NCBI GenBank assembly: GCA_016177465.1
Contig: JACOVF010000072.1
Coordinates: forward strand, 3,083 to 67,082
Length of the DNA stretch: 64,000 bases
Reading direction: 5' to 3'
Origin: Gemmatimonadota bacterium
GTDB lineage: Bacteria; Gemmatimonadota; Gemmatimonadetes; Gemmatimonadales; GWC2-71-9
The position numbers and the translations under genes were made by a program. The notes beneath the pieces were generated by a model, which worked only from the letters and a program-made list of their open reading frames with translations, had not been told where the DNA came from and did not search any database. Positions 10,585 through 32,651 of the stretch are shown in pieces. Each line of letters starts with the position of its first letter. Within the stretch, counting starts at the first letter, position 1.

Positions 10585-12029
10585 ACCAGCTCGAGGGAAT
10601 CGTCGCGGCGTTGCGGCAGGCGCAGCAGCTCGTGGAGGCTCCTGCGGGGCTTCCCGAGATCACGGGCCTCACCGCGGACACGCGGAAGCTCCAGCGCGGG
10701 ATGCTCTACTGCGCGGTCCGCGGCGCGGTGCAGGACGGGCATCAGTTCGTGGGTGCCGCGGCGGCGAGCGGCGCGGCGGCCGCGCTGGTCGAGATGCAGC
10801 AGCAAGCGGCGCTGCCGCAGATTGTGATCCGGGACGGGCGCCGCGCCGCCACCGTCGCCGCCGAGGCGTGGTTCGGCCGGCCGGCGGCCCGCCTCAACCT
10901 GGTCGGCGTCACCGGCACCAACGGCAAGACGACCACCGTCACGCTCTCACGCCATGTCCTCAACGCGCTAGAGCCGACGGGCTCGATCGGCACCCTGGGC
11001 GCGTTCGACCCCCAGGGCGAGCCGGTGCCGAGCGAGGCGGGGACCCTCACGACTCCCGGCCCGATCGACCTCCAGGCGACCCTCGCCGCGCTAGTCGCCC
11101 GCGGCGCGCGCAGCGCCACGATGGAAGTTTCGTCGCATAGCCTCGACCAGGGGCGGGTGGACGGCCTCGTGTTCCGCGCCGCCATTTACACCAACCTGAC
11201 GCGCGACCACCTCGACTATCACAAGACGCTCGAGGACTACTTCAAGGCCAAGGCGAGGCTCTCGACCTACGTCGCCAGCAACGGGCTCGAGGTCGTGAAC
11301 GCCGACGACCCGGCGTGGCAGCGGCTGCGGCACGAGCGCCGCCGCGTCACCTTTGGCGAGCGAGGCGGGGAAGTCACGGCGAGGAAGATCACCGCCGATG
11401 CGCTCGGGTCGCGCTTCACCCTCGTCATGCCCGCCGGCAGCGCCGACGTGCGCCTGCCCCTGCTCGGCCGCTTCAACGTGGTGAACTCCCTCGGCGTCGC
11501 GGCGTGCGCCTGGGGGCTCGGACTCGCGGTCGAGGAGATCGCCGAACGGCTGACCGGAGCGCCGCAGGTGCCGGGGCGGATGGAGCGGATCGCGACCATG
11601 CCGTGCACCATCTTGCGCGACTACGCCCACACCCCCGACGCGCTCGAGCGGGCGCTCGAGACCGTGCGGCCGCTCACACCGGGACGGGTGATCGTCGTGT
11701 CGGGCGCCGGGGGCGACCGGGACCGCGGCAAGCGTGCCCCCATGGGCGAGAGCATGGTCCGCCTCGCCGACGTGGCGATCCTCGCATCCGACAACCCGCG
11801 CACCGAGGACCCGAACCGCATCCTCGACGAGGTCGCCGCGGGCATGGGCGGCCGGCCGCACGAGCGCTTCGTGGACCGCCGCGAGGCGATCGCGCGCGCG
11901 CTCGCGATCGCCCGGGCGGGCGATACGATCCTCCTCTGCGGCAAGGGGCACGAGACCTACCAGGTGATCGGCACCGAGAAGCTGCCGTTCGACGAACGCG
12001 CCATCGTGCGCGAGCTGGGGGCGCAATGA
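10581..12029 (+). CDS. murE: UDP-N-acetylmuramoyl-L-alanyl-D-glutamate--2,6-diaminopimelate ligase MurE
   Basis: Track ORF 10515..12029; ATG 10581 overlaps ftsI stop (ATGA); VTGTNGKTTT P-loop, DNPRTEDP motif. Confidence 0.9.
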   Translation: MNQLEGIVAALRQAQQLVEAPAGLPEITGLTADTRKLQRGMLYCAVRGAVQDGHQFVGAAAASGAAAALVEMQQQAALPQIVIRDGRRAATVAAEAWFGRPAARLNLVGVTGTNGKTTTVTLSRHVLNALEPTGSIGTLGAFDPQGEPVPSEAGTLTTPGPIDLQATLAALVARGARSATMEVSSHSLDQGRVDGLVFRAAIYTNLTRDHLDYHKTLEDYFKAKARLSTYVASNGLEVVNADDPAWQRLRHERRRVTFGERGGEVTARKITADALGSRFTLVMPAGSADVRLPLLGRFNVVNSLGVAACAWGLGLAVEEIAERLTGAPQVPGRMERIATMPCTILRDYAHTPDALERALETVRPLTPGRVIVVSGAGGDRDRGKRAPMGESMVRLADVAILASDNPRTEDPNRILDEVAAGMGGRPHERFVDRREAIARALAIARAGDTILLCGKGHETYQVIGTEKLPFDERAIVRELGAQ

Positions 12030-12133
12030 ATCCAGAATGCAGAATGCAAAAGGCGGAATTGAAAGGGGAGCTCGTGCCGCCGCGGGAACGCCGATCGATC
12101 CATTCTGCATTCTGCGTTTTGCATTCTGAATTC
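12028..12133. repeat. heptamer-periodic inverted repeat element E1 (GAATGCA units) filling the murE-murF gap
   Basis: Left arm GAATCCA GAATGCA GAATGCA AAAGGCG GAATTGA (12028-12062); right arm TCCATTC TGCATTC TGCGTTT TGCATTC TGAATTC (12099-12133) is its reverse-complement heptamer; shares the 9-mer CGGAATTGA (12054-12062) with E2. Confidence 0.8.
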
Positions 12134-12147
12134 GGGGAGGGGTGGTG

Positions 12148-24074: not shown

Positions 24075-24773
24075 GTGGACCTGTATCCCGCCGTCGACGT
24101 GCAGGGCGGGCGCATGGCGCGCGTGCCGCCGGGGCATCCTGACGACCCGCTCGCTGTGGCGCGCGCCTTCGCCGCGGCCGGGGCACGCTGGGTGCACTTC
24201 GTGGACCTGGACCGCGCGTACGGCCGGGGGGACAACCGCGCGCTGGCGCGCCGCTTCCTTGCGGATGCCGACCTCCGCGTGCAGGTGGGCGGCGGCCTCG
24301 CCACGGAGGAGGCGATCACGGAAATGCTCGACTGGGGCGCGGCGCGCGTCGTGGTCGGCGCCGCGGCGGCCGCCGACGCCGCGCGGCTCACCCGTCTCCT
24401 CTCCCGGCACGGGGCGGAGCGGGTGGCCGTCGCGATCGACGCGAAGGGCGGCCGCCTGGTGCCGCGCGGCGCGGCGGGTACCGGCGCGCTCGACCTCACC
24501 GTCGCGGAGTTGGCGCGACGCGTGCGCGCCCAGGGAATCCACACCGTGGTGTACACCGATGTGACACGCGACGGCGCGCTGGCCGGGCCGGACGTGGACG
24601 GCGCGCGCGCGATCGCAGCCCTGGGGCTCGACGTCGTCGCGAGCGGCGGCGTGGCGTCGCTCGAGGACCTGGCGCGCGTGCGGGCGGCGGGGCTCGCCGG
24701 CGCCGTCGTCGGGCGCGCGCTGTACGAAGGCCGCTTCACCCTCGCGCAGGCGCTCGCGTGTCTCACCGCCTGA
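24075..24773 (+). CDS. hisA: HisA/PriA-type phosphoribosyl isomerase
   Basis: In-frame part of track ORF 23622..24773; GTG 24075 gives (M)DLYPAVDVQGGR; VQVGGGL and ASGGVASLEDL phosphate-binding motifs; no other his genes nearby. Confidence 0.8.
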   Translation: MDLYPAVDVQGGRMARVPPGHPDDPLAVARAFAAAGARWVHFVDLDRAYGRGDNRALARRFLADADLRVQVGGGLATEEAITEMLDWGAARVVVGAAAAADAARLTRLLSRHGAERVAVAIDAKGGRLVPRGAAGTGALDLTVAELARRVRAQGIHTVVYTDVTRDGALAGPDVDGARAIAALGLDVVASGGVASLEDLARVRAAGLAGAVVGRALYEGRFTLAQALACLTA

Positions 24774-26536
24774 CCCCCGGGCTGGTCCTGCTGCGGGCCG
24801 CCGCCGTGCTCGCGTTGATGCTGCTGCTCTGGAACCCGGCACGCTCGCGCGCGCTTCCCGAAGACGCCCAACCGCTCGTCCTGCTGGACGCCTCGCTCAG
24901 CATGGCCGGCCAGGGTGGAGCGTGGCGCGCGGCGCTCGACACGGCGCGGGTACTCGCGGCCAAGGGCAGTGAAGGGGGCGGCGTGATCTGGCGGTTCGGG
25001 GGGGGCGTCGCGGGGTTCGATTCAGCGCCCCCCGGCGACGGGGCGAGCCGCCTGGGCCCGGCACTCGAGGCGGCTGCGGCCCGCGGCGGTGCCATCACGG
25101 TCGTGACCGACGGCGCCGTCGAGGATGTCGCCGACTTGCCGCCGGACCTGCGGCGGCGGCCGCGAGTCGTGCTCCTGCCCCGGGACGACTTCCCTGACGC
25201 GTTCGTCGCGGGCGTCGCAGGACCGCGGCGCGTCAGCGCCCAGGACACGGTTCGGCTCAGCATCGCCTATGGAACGGCCGGGAAGCGGGAACGGGGAAGC
25301 GGGAAGCGTGCAACGCTCGTCGTCAGCGCCGGTAGGCGGCTCGCGTCGCGCGATGTCACGTTGCCCGACAGCGGTACGGTATCCGCGGAACTGACGCTTC
25401 CCGCTTCCCGCTTCCCCTTTCCCGGTTGGCACGCCCTTGAGGTGCGGCTGGTAGGGACGAACGATCCCGAGCCCCGGGACGACGCCCGCCTGTTCCTGAT
25501 CGAGGTGAGCCCTCTGCCCGCCGCGGTGATCCTCGCCGCGCCGCCTGACTGGGAGACGCGCTTCCTGGCGCGCGCGCTGGGCGAGGTGGCACGCGTCCCG
25601 GTGAAGACCTTCGTCGAAGCCGAGCCGGCCCGTGGCTGGCGCGATGGAGCGACGCTCGCGGCGGTGGCGGTGAGTGACGTGCAGCGCGCCGTGGACGCCG
25701 CGCGGCTCGTCGTGCTCGCCGGGGACCCGGCGCGTCACGGGCGCATCCGTCTCGCCCCGCGCGCGGCGGTGCTGGCGTGGCCCACGACGCGCGGACGGGA
25801 GGGCGACTGGTACGTCCAGCCGCCGCCGCCCTCGCCGCTCGCCGGGCTGCTCGCGGGGCTGCCGTGGGATTCGCTGCCCCCCGCGAGCTCGGCGGTGGAC
25901 CTGCTCCCCGACAGCAGCGCGATCGTCGTGCTGACGGCGCGTCTCGCGCGCCGCGGCACTCCGCAGCCGATCGTGCTGCTCACCCGCCGCGACGGGGGGG
26001 GCGCGCGTCAGGCGACAGTCGCGGCCAGCGGGCTGTGGCGGTGGAGCTTCCGGGGCGGCGCAGCGGGGCTCGCCTATCGGTCGTTCATCGCCTCGCTGGC
26101 GGACTGGTTACTCGGTGGGGGAGAGGGGAGAGGGGAGAGGTTCGTGCCGGTGGCCCTGGAAACTCCCAATGGCTTGCCTTTGGTCTGGCGCTGGACGGGG
26201 ATGGGGTCGCCGCAGGACGTGAGGATCAGCCTTCAGGCCGGCCCCGCCGAGCGGGTCGACACCGTGCGCTTCGATGCCGACGGCCGCGCCGAGCTGCGGC
26301 TCCCGCCGGGGGTGTACCGCTACGCGGCGGACGACGGCGGCGAGCGCGGCCTGGTTGCGGTGGAAACCTACTCCGCTGAGTGGCGGCCGGCCGCGGCGGT
26401 GCTCACGGCGCAGGCGGGACTCCCGGCCGAGCGGCGGGAGAGCGTGGGGTTGCGGGACCGCTGGTGGCTGTTCGTAATCGCCGTCGCCGCGTTCGCGGCG
26501 GAATGGGCGTGGCGGCGGCGGATGGGGCTGCCCTGA
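24758..26536 (+). CDS. membrane protein with degenerate vWA/MIDAS-like N-terminal region (BatA-like), repeat-laden
   Basis: 592 aa; N-terminal TM (LVLLRAAAVLALMLLLWNP), LVLLDASLSM (DxSxS), C-terminal TM (WWLFVIAVAAFAAEWAW); contains E3, a (GGGGAGA)x3 run and two G8 runs. Confidence 0.65.
   Translation: MSHRLTPGLVLLRAAAVLALMLLLWNPARSRALPEDAQPLVLLDASLSMAGQGGAWRAALDTARVLAAKGSEGGGVIWRFGGGVAGFDSAPPGDGASRLGPALEAAAARGGAITVVTDGAVEDVADLPPDLRRRPRVVLLPRDDFPDAFVAGVAGPRRVSAQDTVRLSIAYGTAGKRERGSGKRATLVVSAGRRLASRDVTLPDSGTVSAELTLPASRFPFPGWHALEVRLVGTNDPEPRDDARLFLIEVSPLPAAVILAAPPDWETRFLARALGEVARVPVKTFVEAEPARGWRDGATLAAVAVSDVQRAVDAARLVVLAGDPARHGRIRLAPRAAVLAWPTTRGREGDWYVQPPPPSPLAGLLAGLPWDSLPPASSAVDLLPDSSAIVVLTARLARRGTPQPIVLLTRRDGGGARQATVAASGLWRWSFRGGAAGLAYRSFIASLADWLLGGGEGRGERFVPVALETPNGLPLVWRWTGMGSPQDVRISLQAGPAERVDTVRFDADGRAELRLPPGVYRYAADDGGERGLVAVETYSAEWRPAAAVLTAQAGLPAERRESVGLRDRWWLFVIAVAAFAAEWAWRRRMGLP
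25278..25425. repeat. heptamer-periodic inverted repeat E3 (GGGAAGC units): 32-nt arms around an 84-nt core, inside a CDS
   Basis: Left arm 25278-25309 CCGGGAAGCGGGAACGGGGAAGCGGGAAGCGT; reverse complement of right arm 25394-25425 is CCGGGAAAGGGGAAGCGGGAAGCGGGAAGCGT (28/32 identical by my count). Confidence 0.85.
26118..26138 (+). repeat. tandem heptamer run (GGGGAGA)x3, one-armed
   Basis: Three perfect GGGGAGA units inside the vWA-like ORF (encodes GGGEGRGER); no inverted partner seen nearby. Confidence 0.8.
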
Positions 26537-26751
26537 TGGGGCTGTGGGCGACGTTGGCCAGCGTGTTCACGCGTCGCGATCCGGCAGCGCGCGACGAGGC
26601 CGAGCGGGTGTTGCTCGAGGCCGACTTCGGCGTCGCCGCGACCACGGCGATCATGGACCGGCTCGCCCACGTGCCGGATGCGGAGCTCGAGCCCGCGCTG
26701 GAGCGCATCGTGTCGAAGCTGGTCGCGGCGGCGGGGGATCCCGCGGGCTGA
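26536..26751 (+). CDS. 71-aa ORF resembling only the N-terminal helical part of FtsY/SRP54 N domain
   Basis: In-frame part of track ORF 26380..26751; ATG 26536 overlaps upstream stop (TGATG), its stop overlaps the recG ATG (CTGATG); LWATLASVFTRRD...AERVLLEADFGVAATTAIMDRL resembles the FtsY segment ...SLFRGKKIDDDLFEELEEQLLIADVGVETTRKII... Confidence 0.45.
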   Translation: MGLWATLASVFTRRDPAARDEAERVLLEADFGVAATTAIMDRLAHVPDAELEPALERIVSKLVAAAGDPAG

Positions 26752-28814
26752 TGCCACTCGACCTCGCGACGTCCGTCAAATACCTCAAAGGGGTCGGTCC
26801 CAGGCGCGCCGAAGCGCTCGGCCGCCTCGGCGTGCGGACGGTCGGCGACCTCCTCTATCACGCGCCCCACCGTTACCTCGACGCCACCACCATCACTCCG
26901 CTGGCGCGGGCCCAGATGGGCACAGAAGTGAGTTGCGTCGGGCGGGTCGTCACGACGGGGATCCTCCCCACGCGTCGCGGACTGCGCGTGTTCCGCGCGG
27001 TGCTCAAGGACGACAGCGGGCTGCTCGAGTGCGCCTGGCCCGGCCAGCCGTTCCTCGAGCGGACCATCAAGAAGGGGCAGCTGCTGCTCGTAACCGGCCC
27101 GGTGCGCTATTACCACGGCCGCCAGGTGGTGCCGCGGGAGTTCATCGTCCTGGCGGAAGAGGGCGAAACGGGCCCCGATCGTGGCTTGATCCTCCCGGTG
27201 TATCCCGCCACCGCGGGCCTCTCCCACAAGCAGATCCGCGCCCTGATCAACCAGCACCTCGAGGCGTTGCTCGCCCTCGCCCGGGACCCCCACCCGAAGC
27301 CGCTGCGCGAGCGCGTCGGGATCTCCGAGCTTCGCACCGCCCTCGCCGCCGTCCATCGCCCCGAGACGTTGCCCCAGGCCGAGGCCGGGCGCCGGCGGCT
27401 CGCGTTCGACGAGTTCTTCGATCAGCAGCTGGTGCAGGCGCGGGCGCGGTTCCTGGCGAAGCGAGCCCGGGCCGGGATCCGGTTCGAGCTGAAACGCGAG
27501 CTGACGACCAGGCTCAAGGAGCACCTCCCCTTCGAGCTGACCGCGGACCAGCGCCAGGCGATCCGGGAGATCGCCGACGACATGACGGCGCCGCTGCGGA
27601 TGCACCGCCTGTTGATGGGCGACGTCGGCACGGGGAAGACCGTGGTCGCGTTGTTCGCGATGCTGCTCGCGGTGGAGAACGACTACCAGGCTGCGATCAT
27701 GGCGCCCACCGAGCTCCTGGCCGAGCAGCACTTTGCCACGCTTACCCAGCTGCTCGAGCCGCTCGCCATCCGGCCCGAGCTCCTGATCGGCCGCTTCACG
27801 GCGGCGGAGAAGGCGGCGGCGCGGGAGCGGATGGCCCGCGGAGCCTCGCGCGTGATCGTCGGCACGCACGCGCTCATTCAGGAATCGGTGACGTTCCAAC
27901 GCCTGGGGCTCGCGGTGATCGACGAGCAGCACCGCTTCGGGGTGGAGCAGCGAGCGGCGCTGGTCGAAAAGGGCGATGCCCCCGACGTCCTGCTCCTCAC
28001 GGCCACGCCGATCCCACGCTCCCTTGCGCTGACACTCTACGGCGATCTCGATGTCACGCAGCTGCGCGAGCGCCCGCCAGGGCGGGGGGCGGTGAAGGCC
28101 GCGCTCCGCACCGACGAAGCGCGGGCGCGAATCTACGAGTTCATCCGCAGCGAGTGCGCCGCCGGGCGGCAGGCGTACGTCATCTATCCCGTGATCGACG
28201 AGTCGGAGAAGGCCGACCTCAAGGCCGCCACCACGATGGCGGACAAGCTTACGAAGGTCTTCCGGGAGTTCACGGTGGGGCTGGTACACGGCCGCCTGAG
28301 GGCGGAGGAGCGGGACGACACGATGCGCGCCTTCCGCGACAACCAGGTGCACGTCCTGGTTGCGACGAGTGTCATCGAAGTCGGGATCGACGTCGCCAAC
28401 GCGACGGTGATGCTGATCGAGCACGCGGAGCGCTTCGGGCTCGCGCAGCTGCACCAACTGCGCGGCCGGGTGGGCCGCGGCAGCGCGCCGAGCCACTGCA
28501 TTCTGCTGAGCGACGTCCCGGAAGCGGCCACCCGGCTCGAGGCGTTCACGAAGACCACCGACGGTTTCCGAATCGCGGAGCTGGACCTGCAGGAGCGTGG
28601 CATGGGCGAGCTGGCCGGCGCGCGACAGTCGGGCGGGATGGCGCTTCGTTACGCCGACTTCGGCAGGGATCTTGACTTGCTGGAAGCCTCGCGGCGCGCC
28701 GCGGCGGGGATCATCGAGCGGGATCCGGCGCTGACCCGGCCGGAGCACGCGGTCTACCGGGAGCGGATCCTGCAGCGATATGAACGCGGGTTTGAGCTGT
28801 TCAGGGTCGGGTGA
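26751..28814 (+). CDS. recG: ATP-dependent DNA helicase RecG
   Basis: In-frame part of track ORF 26544..28814, start MPLDLATSVKYLKGVGPRRAEAL; helicase motifs GDVGTGKT, DEQHRFG, TATPIPR, QLRGRVGRG. Confidence 0.92.
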   Translation: MPLDLATSVKYLKGVGPRRAEALGRLGVRTVGDLLYHAPHRYLDATTITPLARAQMGTEVSCVGRVVTTGILPTRRGLRVFRAVLKDDSGLLECAWPGQPFLERTIKKGQLLLVTGPVRYYHGRQVVPREFIVLAEEGETGPDRGLILPVYPATAGLSHKQIRALINQHLEALLALARDPHPKPLRERVGISELRTALAAVHRPETLPQAEAGRRRLAFDEFFDQQLVQARARFLAKRARAGIRFELKRELTTRLKEHLPFELTADQRQAIREIADDMTAPLRMHRLLMGDVGTGKTVVALFAMLLAVENDYQAAIMAPTELLAEQHFATLTQLLEPLAIRPELLIGRFTAAEKAAARERMARGASRVIVGTHALIQESVTFQRLGLAVIDEQHRFGVEQRAALVEKGDAPDVLLLTATPIPRSLALTLYGDLDVTQLRERPPGRGAVKAALRTDEARARIYEFIRSECAAGRQAYVIYPVIDESEKADLKAATTMADKLTKVFREFTVGLVHGRLRAEERDDTMRAFRDNQVHVLVATSVIEVGIDVANATVMLIEHAERFGLAQLHQLRGRVGRGSAPSHCILLSDVPEAATRLEAFTKTTDGFRIAELDLQERGMGELAGARQSGGMALRYADFGRDLDLLEASRRAAAGIIERDPALTRPEHAVYRERILQRYERGFELFRVG

Positions 28815-28824
28815 AATGATAATG

Positions 28825-28919
28825 GGAATGTGGAGTGCGGAATGCGGAATTGATGTGTCAGGTCGCTCGGTATTCGACCGTCCATTGACATTCCGCAATC
28901 GCATTCCGCACTCCGCATT
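28825..28919. repeat. heptamer-periodic inverted repeat element E2 (GGAATGC units) in the convergent gap after recG
   Basis: AATGTGGAGTGCGGAATGCGG (28827-28847) pairs with (T)CGCATTCCGCACTCCGCATT (28899-28919): 19 Watson-Crick pairs, one G-U and one T-G mismatch over 21 positions; the right arm overlaps the stop codon of the minus-strand gene; shares CGGAATTGA (28845-28853) with E1. Confidence 0.85.
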
Positions 28920-29421
28920 AGAAGGTGAACCGAAGCCCCACGCGCGCTCCGTCCCCTGCCGGGCTTGCCGTCACCTCCAAGGGTGCAAATGGAATGTTCT
29001 CCGGCCCGTTCTTCTCGTGGCGCAGGTCGGCGATGAACATCGCGGCGGTGGCGAGCAGGGAAAGCTGGCCGCCCAGGAGGCGGCGGTTGGCGCGGCGGTC
29101 GTAATACAGCGCGAGCTGGTAGTGATACTCCGCGGTCGCGTTGACGTAGCGACCGTCGGAGCCGGTCATGCAATCGGCGCTGTTGGCCTGGCAGATGGCG
29201 AGTAGCCGGTCCCACGCGCGGGCGGAGCGGCGGTGCTCGTTCGCGCCGAGCACGGTCAGGCCGACAGTGGCCCCGGCCGTCACCCATTTCCCGTAGTGAA
29301 TCACGCCACGCGTCCACGACGCGCGGTCGCGGGGGACGCCCGGCCCTTGGGCCGAGGCCATCGTGGCTCCACCCGTTAGAGTGGGGCCAATGGCGAGCAA
29401 AACCCACCACGGGCGTTTCAT
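28918..29421 (-). CDS. secreted hypothetical protein (ends ...VGLRFTF)
   Basis: 3' part of track ORF 28918..29760; start MKRPWWVLLAIGPTLTGGATMASAQ (signal peptide); aromatic C-terminus as in outer-membrane proteins; ATGA-type overlap with the upstream gene. Confidence 0.6.
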   Translation of the reverse strand: MKRPWWVLLAIGPTLTGGATMASAQGPGVPRDRASWTRGVIHYGKWVTAGATVGLTVLGANEHRRSARAWDRLLAICQANSADCMTGSDGRYVNATAEYHYQLALYYDRRANRRLLGGQLSLLATAAMFIADLRHEKNGPENIPFAPLEVTASPAGDGARVGLRFTF

Positions 29422-31874: not shown

Positions 31875-32651
31875 TCAGGGTGAGTTCCGTCCGACCGTCC
31901 GCCCGACCCGTTTCACCTCATCCCACAGCTTGTCCAGCTCCTCCAACGTCGCCCGCCCCAGCTCCAGCCCCCGCTCGGCCGCGACCCGCTCTACCTCTCC
32001 GAACCGCCGCACGAACTTGTCGTTCGCCTGCTCCAGTGCCTGACTTGGCTCCACGCCGAGCTTCCGCGCGAGGTTCACCACGGCGAACAACAGGTCCCCG
32101 ACTTCCTCCGCAACCTTTTCGGCATTCCCCTTTCCCCATTCCCCTTCGAGCTCCGCCGTCTCCTCTTTTACTTTGTCGAGCGGCCCCTTCGCATCCGGCC
32201 AGTCGAACCCCACCCCCGCCGCCCGCTCCTGCAACCGATACGCCATCAGCAGCGCCGGCAGGGTGGGGGGTAATCCGGACAGCGTCTTACCCATCCTCCT
32301 TCCCGTTTCCCCCTTCCCGAGCTCCCAGGACTCCGGCCGGTCTCCGAGACCGAAGAGGTGTGGGTGCCTTCGCCACATCTTTTCCTCGAGTGCGCGCGTC
32401 ACCGCCTCGGCGTCGAATTGGTTGCGCTCTTCGCCGATCACGATCTGGAACGCGACGTTGAGGAGCAGGTCACCCAGCTCGTCGCGGATCTTGATCGGGT
32501 CATCGTGGCGGATCGCCTGGTCGAGCTCGTGGGCTTCCTCGACGAGGTAGGGGCGGAGTGTCTGGGGGGTCTGCCCGCGGTCCCAGGGACAGCGGTGCCG
32601 CAGGTCGCGGACGAGCCCGAGGGCGCGTCCAAGCGCTGAATCGCCTTGCAT
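31875..32651 (-). CDS. mazG: nucleoside triphosphate pyrophosphohydrolase MazG
   Basis: 258 aa; LVEEAHELDQAI and AEEVGDLLFAVVNLAR MazG motifs; carries two G-rich heptamer runs on its coding strand. Confidence 0.88.
   Translation of the reverse strand: MQGDSALGRALGLVRDLRHRCPWDRGQTPQTLRPYLVEEAHELDQAIRHDDPIKIRDELGDLLLNVAFQIVIGEERNQFDAEAVTRALEEKMWRRHPHLFGLGDRPESWELGKGETGRRMGKTLSGLPPTLPALLMAYRLQERAAGVGFDWPDAKGPLDKVKEETAELEGEWGKGNAEKVAEEVGDLLFAVVNLARKLGVEPSQALEQANDKFVRRFGEVERVAAERGLELGRATLEELDKLWDEVKRVGRTVGRNSP

Follow-up and report, generated by a model that had tools for sequence, protein, structure and literature searches.

A stretch of 64,000 nucleotides (nt) from a Gemmatimonadota bacterium (contig JACOVF010000072.1, positions 3,083 to 67,082), referred to here in full as the window, contains a protein-coding gene that carries a long inverted repeat built from seven-nucleotide units. 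The repeat is a conserved DNA-level feature within the gene; neither ordinary coding sequence nor the simple insertion of a transposon describes it. G+C makes up about 70% of the window. The host gene encodes a membrane-anchored, multidomain protein with N- and C-terminal helices and Ig-like beta-sandwiches. More than 1000 homologs were found, all apparently from Gemmatimonadales and some titled 'Gemmatimonadales bacterium' hypothetical protein; judged from these sequences, the protein is apparently specific to that group. Profile searches returned no Pfam or NCBIfam family for it, and a fold search of the PDB returned generic Ig-like sandwich domains only, with low template-modelling (TM) scores. 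In an AlphaFold model with a mean confidence (pLDDT) of 68.6, residues 148-251 form a beta-sandwich, and this is the domain that carries the repeat.

24758-26536, + strand: host gene, from the open reading frame (ORF) call and its translation; 592 amino acids
25278-25309, + strand: left, G-rich arm (CCGGGAAGCGGGAACGGGGAAGCGGGAAGCGT); heptamers GGGAAGC/GGGAACG/GGGAAGC/GGGAAGC at 25280-25307; encodes residues ~174-184 (AGKRERGSGKR)
25310-25393, + strand: spacer, ancestral coding sequence; beta-strands 184-190, 194-201 and 206-215, with a near-invariant LPDSG
25394-25425, + strand: right, C-rich arm (ACGCTTCCCGCTTCCCGCTTCCCCTTTCCCGG); GCTTCCC x3 + CTTTCCC; encodes (T)LPASRFPFPG

The arms are 32 nt each, are complementary at 28 of 32 positions (88%), and lie 84 nt apart. 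A preliminary description, made from the letters of the window, had reported these arms, their complementarity and heptamer build, and their translations as GKRERGSGKR and ASRFPFPG, all of which were reproduced. Its further claim, that such a stem is not due to chance, is borne out. Among inverted repeats with arms no more than 300 nt apart, this pair is the top-scoring one in the 64-kb window. The RNA fold of 25268-25435 has an energy of -93.4 kcal/mol, compared with -74.2 +/- 4.1 for dinucleotide shuffles (z = -4.64; none of 200 folded as well). In many orthologs, too, the best inverted repeat of the gene is found at this site, as described below. With up to two mismatches allowed, GGGAAGCGGGAAGC matches the window 11 times against 1.27 expected, and six of the 11 matches fall within the two arms.

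The general architecture of the element can be written 5'-(GGGAxyz)4 ... (z'y'x'TCCC)4-3'. In the AlphaFold model, the left arm encodes a loop (174-183) that joins strand 164-173 to strand 184-190 and in which pLDDT falls below 50 at residues 178-181; the right arm supplies the last part of a strand and the loop at ~216-222. The left arm holds four G3-4 tracts, and a G-quadruplex (G4) pattern is present in both arms, on the sense strand for the left one and on the antisense strand for the right one. A scan of 24700-29100 against Rfam 15 gave no match at E <= 1, and scans of 24600-26800 for sigma-70 promoters and U-tract terminators also gave none. With an 84-nt loop and no T-run after the right arm, the element itself does not have the form of a terminator.

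Conservation and concerted change of the two arms

Seventy-nine species-level ortholog loci were retrieved, and ortholog counts given here refer to 80 loci. At 49 of the 80, the best inverted repeat of the gene lies at this site, with scores of 14-30.5 compared with ~9-15.5 elsewhere in the gene. The preliminary description had named, as the alternative to its own reading, an ordinary coding segment conserved in orthologs without inverted symmetry; instead, these 49 loci keep the hairpin. It is absent or decayed in 23 of the 72 main-clade orthologs and in the whole of a distant clade.

The repeat unit is always GGGAxyz. The three variable positions differ by species (AGC, AAC, TGC, CGA/CGG, GGC/GAC, AGA/AGG, TTC), and the two arms are alike within each. 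When a left arm is paired with its own right arm the score is 20.4, compared with 13.1 for a foreign right arm, and none of 5000 permutations scored as high. Covariation was examined in an alignment of 37 ortholog sequences, with slid registers and shuffles as controls. Arm-to-arm pairing occurs in 85.5% of cells compared with at most 59.5% in slid registers, and there are 96 two-sided compensated cells compared with 11-31. The covariation score is 0.209 compared with 0.05-0.12 in slid registers, and none of 500 shuffles reached it. The 12 pairs that covary coincide exactly with the xyz positions, and GGGA is invariant.

Because seven is not a multiple of three, the unit fixes a peptide period of seven residues, and the right arm reads [z'y'x']-S-[Cz'y']-[x'TC]-P-[y'x'T]-P. 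The right-arm peptides predicted from each unit are all observed: ASRFPLP for AGC, ASRIPHP for TGC, VSRFPFP for AAC, SSLVPRP for CGA, PSPVPRP for CGG and SSLFPLP for AGA. The right-arm peptide follows from the xyz shared by both arms, and residues therefore change in pairs (K/F, M/I, R/L, T/V) that represent all four Watson-Crick combinations at one stem position. These residues lie ~40 apart and covary because their codons are reverse complements, not through residue interaction, which calls for caution in coevolution-based contact prediction and in reading 'conserved motifs' in loops. Codon usage in the arms is also abnormal: AAA makes up 54% compared with 22%, GAA 54% compared with 25%, TTT 45% compared with 13%, CTT 39% compared with 5% and CCC 65% compared with 32%. 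The arms are enriched in rare codons. The maintained entity is the nucleotide repeat, not the protein, and this is a clear case of a protein sequence that is subordinate to a DNA repeat.

The preliminary description had proposed that the 148 nt from arm to arm are an insertion resembling a miniature inverted-repeat transposable element (MITE) or a Rickettsia palindromic element (RPE). The ortholog alignment does not bear out a single insertion. In 28 homologs at ~65% identity the segment is present in all, without an indel and at the same length. The distant clade (L071-L079, 40-44% identity) aligns straight across the spacer and lacks arm peptides of the heptamer type, being shorter by just 3-4 residues at the left arm and 1-2 at the right arm. 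The spacer is kept in all orthologs, and its three strands are integral to the beta-sandwich in the model. Because the spacer encodes three integral strands and no ortholog shows an indel, the 148 nt are not one RPE- or MITE-like insertion. The part of the comparison that stands is that of a nucleotide repeat accommodated by the reading frame, with dispersed in-frame copies. The arms fall in tolerant parts of the protein, the surface loops at 174-183 and ~216-222, and other copies lie in linkers between domains. No shared element consensus, no terminal repeats flanked by target-site duplications and no link to a transposase turned up, although no transposase search was made.

The hairpin lies within a mosaic segment of the gene. 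Heptamer type does not cluster on the phylogeny of the rest of the protein, with same-type pairs 0.638 identical and different-type pairs 0.631. Pairs of loci that are 96-100% identical in DNA over long stretches are interrupted by a sharply bounded block of ~250-300 nt at ~50-60% identity, which covers the sandwich domain and both arms. There are two such divergent blocks, at gene nucleotides ~400-730 and ~1275-1480 (window ~25160-25490 and ~26030-26240), and each contains a heptamer array. Between the orthologs L036 and L048, identity is 96% for the rest of the gene but 54% for the spacer; the corresponding values are 76% and 99% for L031 and L032, and 66% and 81% for L009 and L036. Given these opposite contrasts, either lineages have exchanged the hairpin block or its rate of evolution far exceeds that of the flanks. 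The mosaic pattern suggests segmental recombination or local hyper-evolution of two beta-sandwich regions, and apparent switching of heptamer type may in part be recombinational import. The array in the second block is as follows:

26118-26138, + strand: second heptamer array, (GGGGAGA)x3 = (GGGAGAG)x3; encodes GGGEGRGE

No inverted partner of this array was found. In orthologs this position is also occupied by an array, built of different units (GCG, GCA, GAA, GAG). The preliminary description had given the exact position of this run and called the gene a local hotspot for such repeats, a term that holds good: the array is the second in the gene to be conserved in position while its units vary, and it lies in another hypervariable block.

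Diversifying selection at the protein level, acting on an exposed and recombining domain with the complementarity incidental, would fit the sharply bounded hypervariable segment seen in L036/L048 and L031/L032. Such selection cannot yield Watson-Crick covariation, eight matching heptamers or the rare-codon bias, and the same peptides recur in the cytoplasmic linker of DnaG, described below. As a sole explanation it is largely refuted. A variant in which the segment is invertible, in the manner of a shufflon, was rejected, as all 80 orthologs are collinear, with identical spacer orientation and no inverted spacer. Either version can hardly be right.

The wider class of heptamer-array hairpins

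Hairpins of related architecture are found elsewhere in the window and in other genomes. Two of them are intergenic:

12027-12136: intergenic hairpin with GGAATGC/AGAATGC/GGAGTGC arms; starts just after a stop codon
28827-28919: intergenic hairpin with GGAATGC/AGAATGC/GGAGTGC arms; starts 13 nt after recG

The left arms of both end in GGAATTGA, and they are the sole copies that share both units and end. They look like a small family dispersed in this genome, with an architecture related to that of the intragenic hairpin. Orthologous loci have hairpins after recG that are made of other heptamers (GGAACGC, GGGTRYC, GGATTGC, GCGTGGT, GCGCGGT) and also of GGAATGC. Heptamer hairpins ~2050-2950 nt downstream of the host gene, mostly following recG, occur in L001, L004, L005, L008, L016, L019, L027, L029, L032, L036, L058, L062 and L070. 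Their units differ among species and are unrelated to the intragenic unit of the same genome.

A metagenome scan for GGGAWRC x3 returned at least 120 stretches. Among the matches listed, to which the metagenomic counts in this text refer, two are in host-gene orthologs and 118 are outside, and 31 of the others have an inverted partner. Many of the arrays begin right after stop codons, and the loops of different copies in the class are unrelated to each other. Copies within genes were counted only where Pfam domains were verified on both sides; counts from an ORF classifier based on G+C at third codon positions were discarded, as it assigned too many arrays to genes in contigs of high G+C. Arrays verified in this way as in frame are found in 2-oxoglutarate dehydrogenase (linker), a PHP domain, the SRP54 GTPase, AlaRS (linker), PurL and a MazG-like ORF of the window. 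Full hairpins occur in DnaG, the PHP domain and 2-oxoglutarate dehydrogenase, and single arrays without a partner in SRP54, AlaRS, PurL and MazG. The MazG-like ORF (31875-32651, - strand, two Pfam MazG domains) has two in-frame single GGGA-heptamer arrays within 32123-32318 (- strand), of which one falls in the linker between the domains (ELGKGETGRRMGK) and the other in a loop (EGEWGKGNA); both lack an inverted partner.

DnaG is an independent second case of a conserved intragenic hairpin. In DnaG proteins of Gemmatimonadales that are 85-96% identical, the linker between an invariant VLERE and LPASAEKA switches among the same pairs of arm peptides seen in the host gene. The DNA of four orthologs contains hairpins of (GGGATGC)4, (GGGAAAC)4, (GGGAGRC)4 and (GGGACGR)4 with loops of 9-18 nt. 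The unit type switches even at ~95% overall protein identity (P0125 compared with L185).

L185 8765-8837, and L200, L201 and L202: DnaG hairpin loci, in the linker before the C-terminal domain

Two regularities run through the class. For one, array length peaks at four units (52 of 121 arrays). Second, the G-rich arm is 5' in 38 of 39 independent metagenomic hairpins (p ~1.5e-10) and in all host-gene and DnaG copies. A G-first arrangement reads the same on both strands, and it therefore points to a polar constraint, from transcription or from synthesis of the second arm; the polarity suggests a link to transcription or strand synthesis. The only C-arm-first hairpin of the 39 is in L100, in an ORF (205-960, - strand) where it sits within a DnaE-type PHP domain as an insertion of ~49 residues.

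G-rich arrays also follow the stop codon of the host gene itself, within ~60 nt and before the GTG of the next gene, in L016, L031, L048, L055 and L058. Such a post-stop array may double as a ribosome-binding region. A match in type between the post-stop array and the in-gene arm, seen at 5 of 65 loci (permutation p ~0.04), was set aside, the number being too small to support an argument.

In-frame copies scattered through unrelated genes are what a mobile palindrome of the MITE or RPE type might leave, either inserted in frame as a whole or, in a variant, as two single-array insertions into two loops that later became coupled. Hairpins with short loops do look like true insertions, with the PHP domain running to 166 residues for 117 profile positions, and arrays stand alone in SRP54, AlaRS, PurL and MazG. 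There is also a precedent in Geobacter metallireducens, where 'four tandem heptanucleotide' elements, GGGACCG x4, occur in 49 copies within and between genes (PMC2700814). These resemble the present arrays in having a unit of GGGA plus three nucleotides, typically in four copies, inside and between genes. They differ in forming a multicopy family with a single consensus, described from one genome of another phylum, and no inverted partner, orthologous conservation or concerted evolution of arms has been reported for them. At the host gene the spacer is ancestral and structurally integral, with no indel. Across the class the copies share an architecture and not a consensus, their type is locus-specific, and no transposase or target duplications are known, although no transposase search was made. 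Independent insertions would also not yield G-first polarity in 38 of 39 cases without extra selection. A mobile origin of the host-gene element is thus unlikely.

RPEs themselves offer a partial parallel. They too are palindromic elements that lie in frame within genes at surface or linker sites, adding or overwriting a peptide in a protein that survives. However, RPEs are dispersed copies of a family consensus that appear as indels relative to orthologs. In the Gemmatimonadales element there is no indel, the loop consists of ancestral strands, only the heptamer architecture is shared, and the arms change in concert.

Head-to-tail heptamers are familiar from several other settings. The cyanobacterial short tandemly repeated repetitive sequence STRR1, (CCCCAGT)n, is (GGGACTG)n on the other strand. 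Heptanucleotide repeats are reported to be the most abundant class of long simple sequence repeats (SSRs) in many prokaryotes and are ascribed to polymerase slippage (summarised in PMC4679880). The arrays in the present class are similar in having three or more head-to-tail 7-nt units (four per arm here) and copy numbers that change by slippage. SSR and STRR arrays are mostly intergenic and direct, whereas here they form inverted pairs of fixed polarity that are conserved in genes and produce residue covariation. Repetitive extragenic palindromic (REP) sequences, the REPINs formed from them, and hairpin terminators are also comparable, in that these hairpins lie just after genes and REPINs consist of two inverted repeats with a spacer of tens of nucleotides. 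They differ from the present element, which has no U-tract, has arms that are heptamer arrays, and has an intragenic copy. Neither a REP consensus of the GTAG type nor a connection with RAYT turned up for it, although no search aimed at these was made. A literature search for these hairpins in Gemmatimonadota found no earlier description.

The preliminary description had pointed out a quadruplex pattern in the G-rich arm. A G4 element in DNA or RNA, possibly a switch between G4 and hairpin, would draw on the four G3 tracts with their 4-nt loops. The GGG(A) core is invariant and the loop positions vary, array length peaks at exactly four units, and the Geobacter elements also have four. The canonical motif (four tracts of at least three G, loops of 1-7 nt) is far more common in orthologs with the hairpin (26 of 49 for the left arm on the sense strand, 28 of 49 for the right arm on the antisense strand) than in those without it (6 of 31 and 2 of 31). 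The four G3-4 tracts are present in the arm in the window, but only ~55% of hairpin-bearing orthologs keep the canonical motif in a given arm. A G4 alone needs no matching loops on the complementary arm, and related intergenic hairpins use heptamers with GG only (GGAATGC, GGAACGC). A G4 element is very unlikely to be the explanation.

Level of maintenance and proposed mechanism

The pattern of change in the arms bears on whether DNA or RNA is maintained. Of 1410 stem cells, 88% are Watson-Crick pairs, and among the mismatches there are 31 G:T on the sense strand compared with 38 A:C and C:A. This absence of a G·U excess is unlike stems under RNA-level selection. The identity of the xyz positions is also much the same wherever units are compared within a gene:

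xyz identity, paired register: 0.70
xyz identity, off-register: 0.73
xyz identity, within the left arm: 0.74
xyz identity, within the right arm: 0.69
xyz identity, between species: 0.44

Unit similarity is independent of register. Homogenisation therefore extends to every copy of the heptamer in either orientation, and it is not a matter of given base pairs being preserved. As a consequence of register independence, the covariation is no specific evidence for an RNA.

A selected mRNA hairpin could act as an internal pause, a partial terminator, an RNase barrier or a processing site, with the class made up of terminator-like hairpins at 3' ends. Consistent with this, the predicted fold is very stable (z = -4.64), conservation is long with compensated pairs, and many class members begin directly after stop codons. 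The G-first polarity, being the same on both strands, fits a constraint linked to transcription, and a preference for G in the 5' arm is likewise a trait of intrinsic terminator stems. Against an mRNA hairpin are the missing G·U excess, pairing that is not register-specific, and the absence or decay of the hairpin in close to a third of the main clade and in the entire distant clade. There is also no Rfam match and no U-tract terminator or promoter consensus, and the element sits 520 nt into an ORF. A selected mRNA hairpin is possible but rather doubtful.

Several observations point to events at the DNA level within each locus. L031 and L032, with spacers 99% identical, have left arms that differ by two 21-nt units (42 nt), so that copy-number slippage is seen directly in this pair. 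In-frame expansions of +21 nt and +42 nt are found in L009, L025, L032 and P0112. Heptamer type is locus-specific, with 5 of 63 same-contig array pairs sharing a type compared with ~13% expected at random. This argues for a mechanism in cis, and specification of heptamer type genome-wide, in trans, was rejected on the same count.

We therefore propose cis-acting homogenisation at the DNA level as what would keep the eight heptamer copies alike. Replication slippage would gain and lose 7-nt units, with only steps of 21 nt surviving in frame. Template switching or gene conversion between the complementary arms, in any 7-nt register, would spread a variant unit to both. Segmental recombination between lineages would transfer the entire hairpin-bearing block. 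The protein would merely tolerate the repeat, its loop peptides being by-products trimmed by purifying selection. Cis homogenisation of heptamer arrays in two tolerant loops, combined with recombination of blocks, is probably the right account of the element, although we hold it with no great assurance.

Template switching is known to give rise to hairpins, to maintain them and to make the arms of inverted repeats homogeneous, also in coding DNA (PMC8794818, PMC8604942). In those studies, as here, simultaneous multi-base 'compensatory' changes keep the arms complementary, including in coding DNA, and the multi-base, simultaneous nature of such changes accounts for the lack of G·U intermediates. 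The published cases are sporadic events in rRNA or yeast genes, whereas here the process would be sustained through an order-level radiation, on repetitive arms and in any register.

A number of points weigh against cis homogenisation as a full account. The invariant GGGA core beside variable xyz positions, and the G-arm-first polarity in 38 of 39 hairpins, are not explained by a neutral, strand-symmetric process, and both call for a further constraint or for a polar mechanism. That the element has persisted at one site in lineages with ~55-65% protein identity suggests either very efficient homogenisation or selection. Type switches in close relatives may come from recombinational import of blocks and not from conversion in situ. 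Template switching as the homogenising step is something we infer from the pattern, and the hairpin may or may not have a selected role. All comparative sequences are metagenome-assembled genomes or metagenome assemblies, and the tree is a simple neighbour-joining tree. The invariant core, the modal four units and the G-first polarity keep a functional reading open, whether in transcription or RNA or as a G4.

Two other motif-based ideas were considered. Programmed -1 frameshifting came into question since GGGAAAC, read as G GGA AAC, is one of the classic slippery heptamers; it was rejected as a general explanation, as most lineages use non-slippery units such as GGGATGC and GGGACGR. GGA sites of the CsrA type and pausing at Shine-Dalgarno-like sequences were set aside, the motifs being buried in the duplex and not universal.

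Gemmatimonadales, and probably other soil bacteria, may carry an undescribed class of polar, self-homogenising heptamer hairpins that are long-lived at fixed sites, including dnaG, and that write the residues of loops and linkers. We put this forward tentatively, as plausible and somewhat short of probable. If it holds, members of the class occupy both the ends of genes and the interior of essential ones such as dnaG, and two distant peptide segments covary since their DNA is complementary. The hairpins may also mark or promote hypervariable, recombining gene blocks. They would represent an element of the nucleotide level that is maintained by a mechanism of its own and possibly serves a function linked to transcription. 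A mechanism or function not yet described is suggested by the polarity, the invariant GGGA core, the preference for four copies and the presence in essential genes. The host gene would also offer a natural system for how inverted repeats stay complementary, by template switching or by selection, over deep time and in an ORF that filters changes by frame.

The gene order immediately downstream of the host gene varies among the orthologous loci. A full ftsY comes after the host gene in several of them, and in the window recG is found there. The recG ORF is listed from 26544, and its true start is probably the ATG at 26751. A 71-codon ORF at 26536-26751 (+ strand) overlaps the host-gene stop (TGATG) and encodes a peptide like the N terminus of FtsY (MGLWATL...ERVLLEADFGVAATTAIMDRL); it may be the remnant of a rearrangement.

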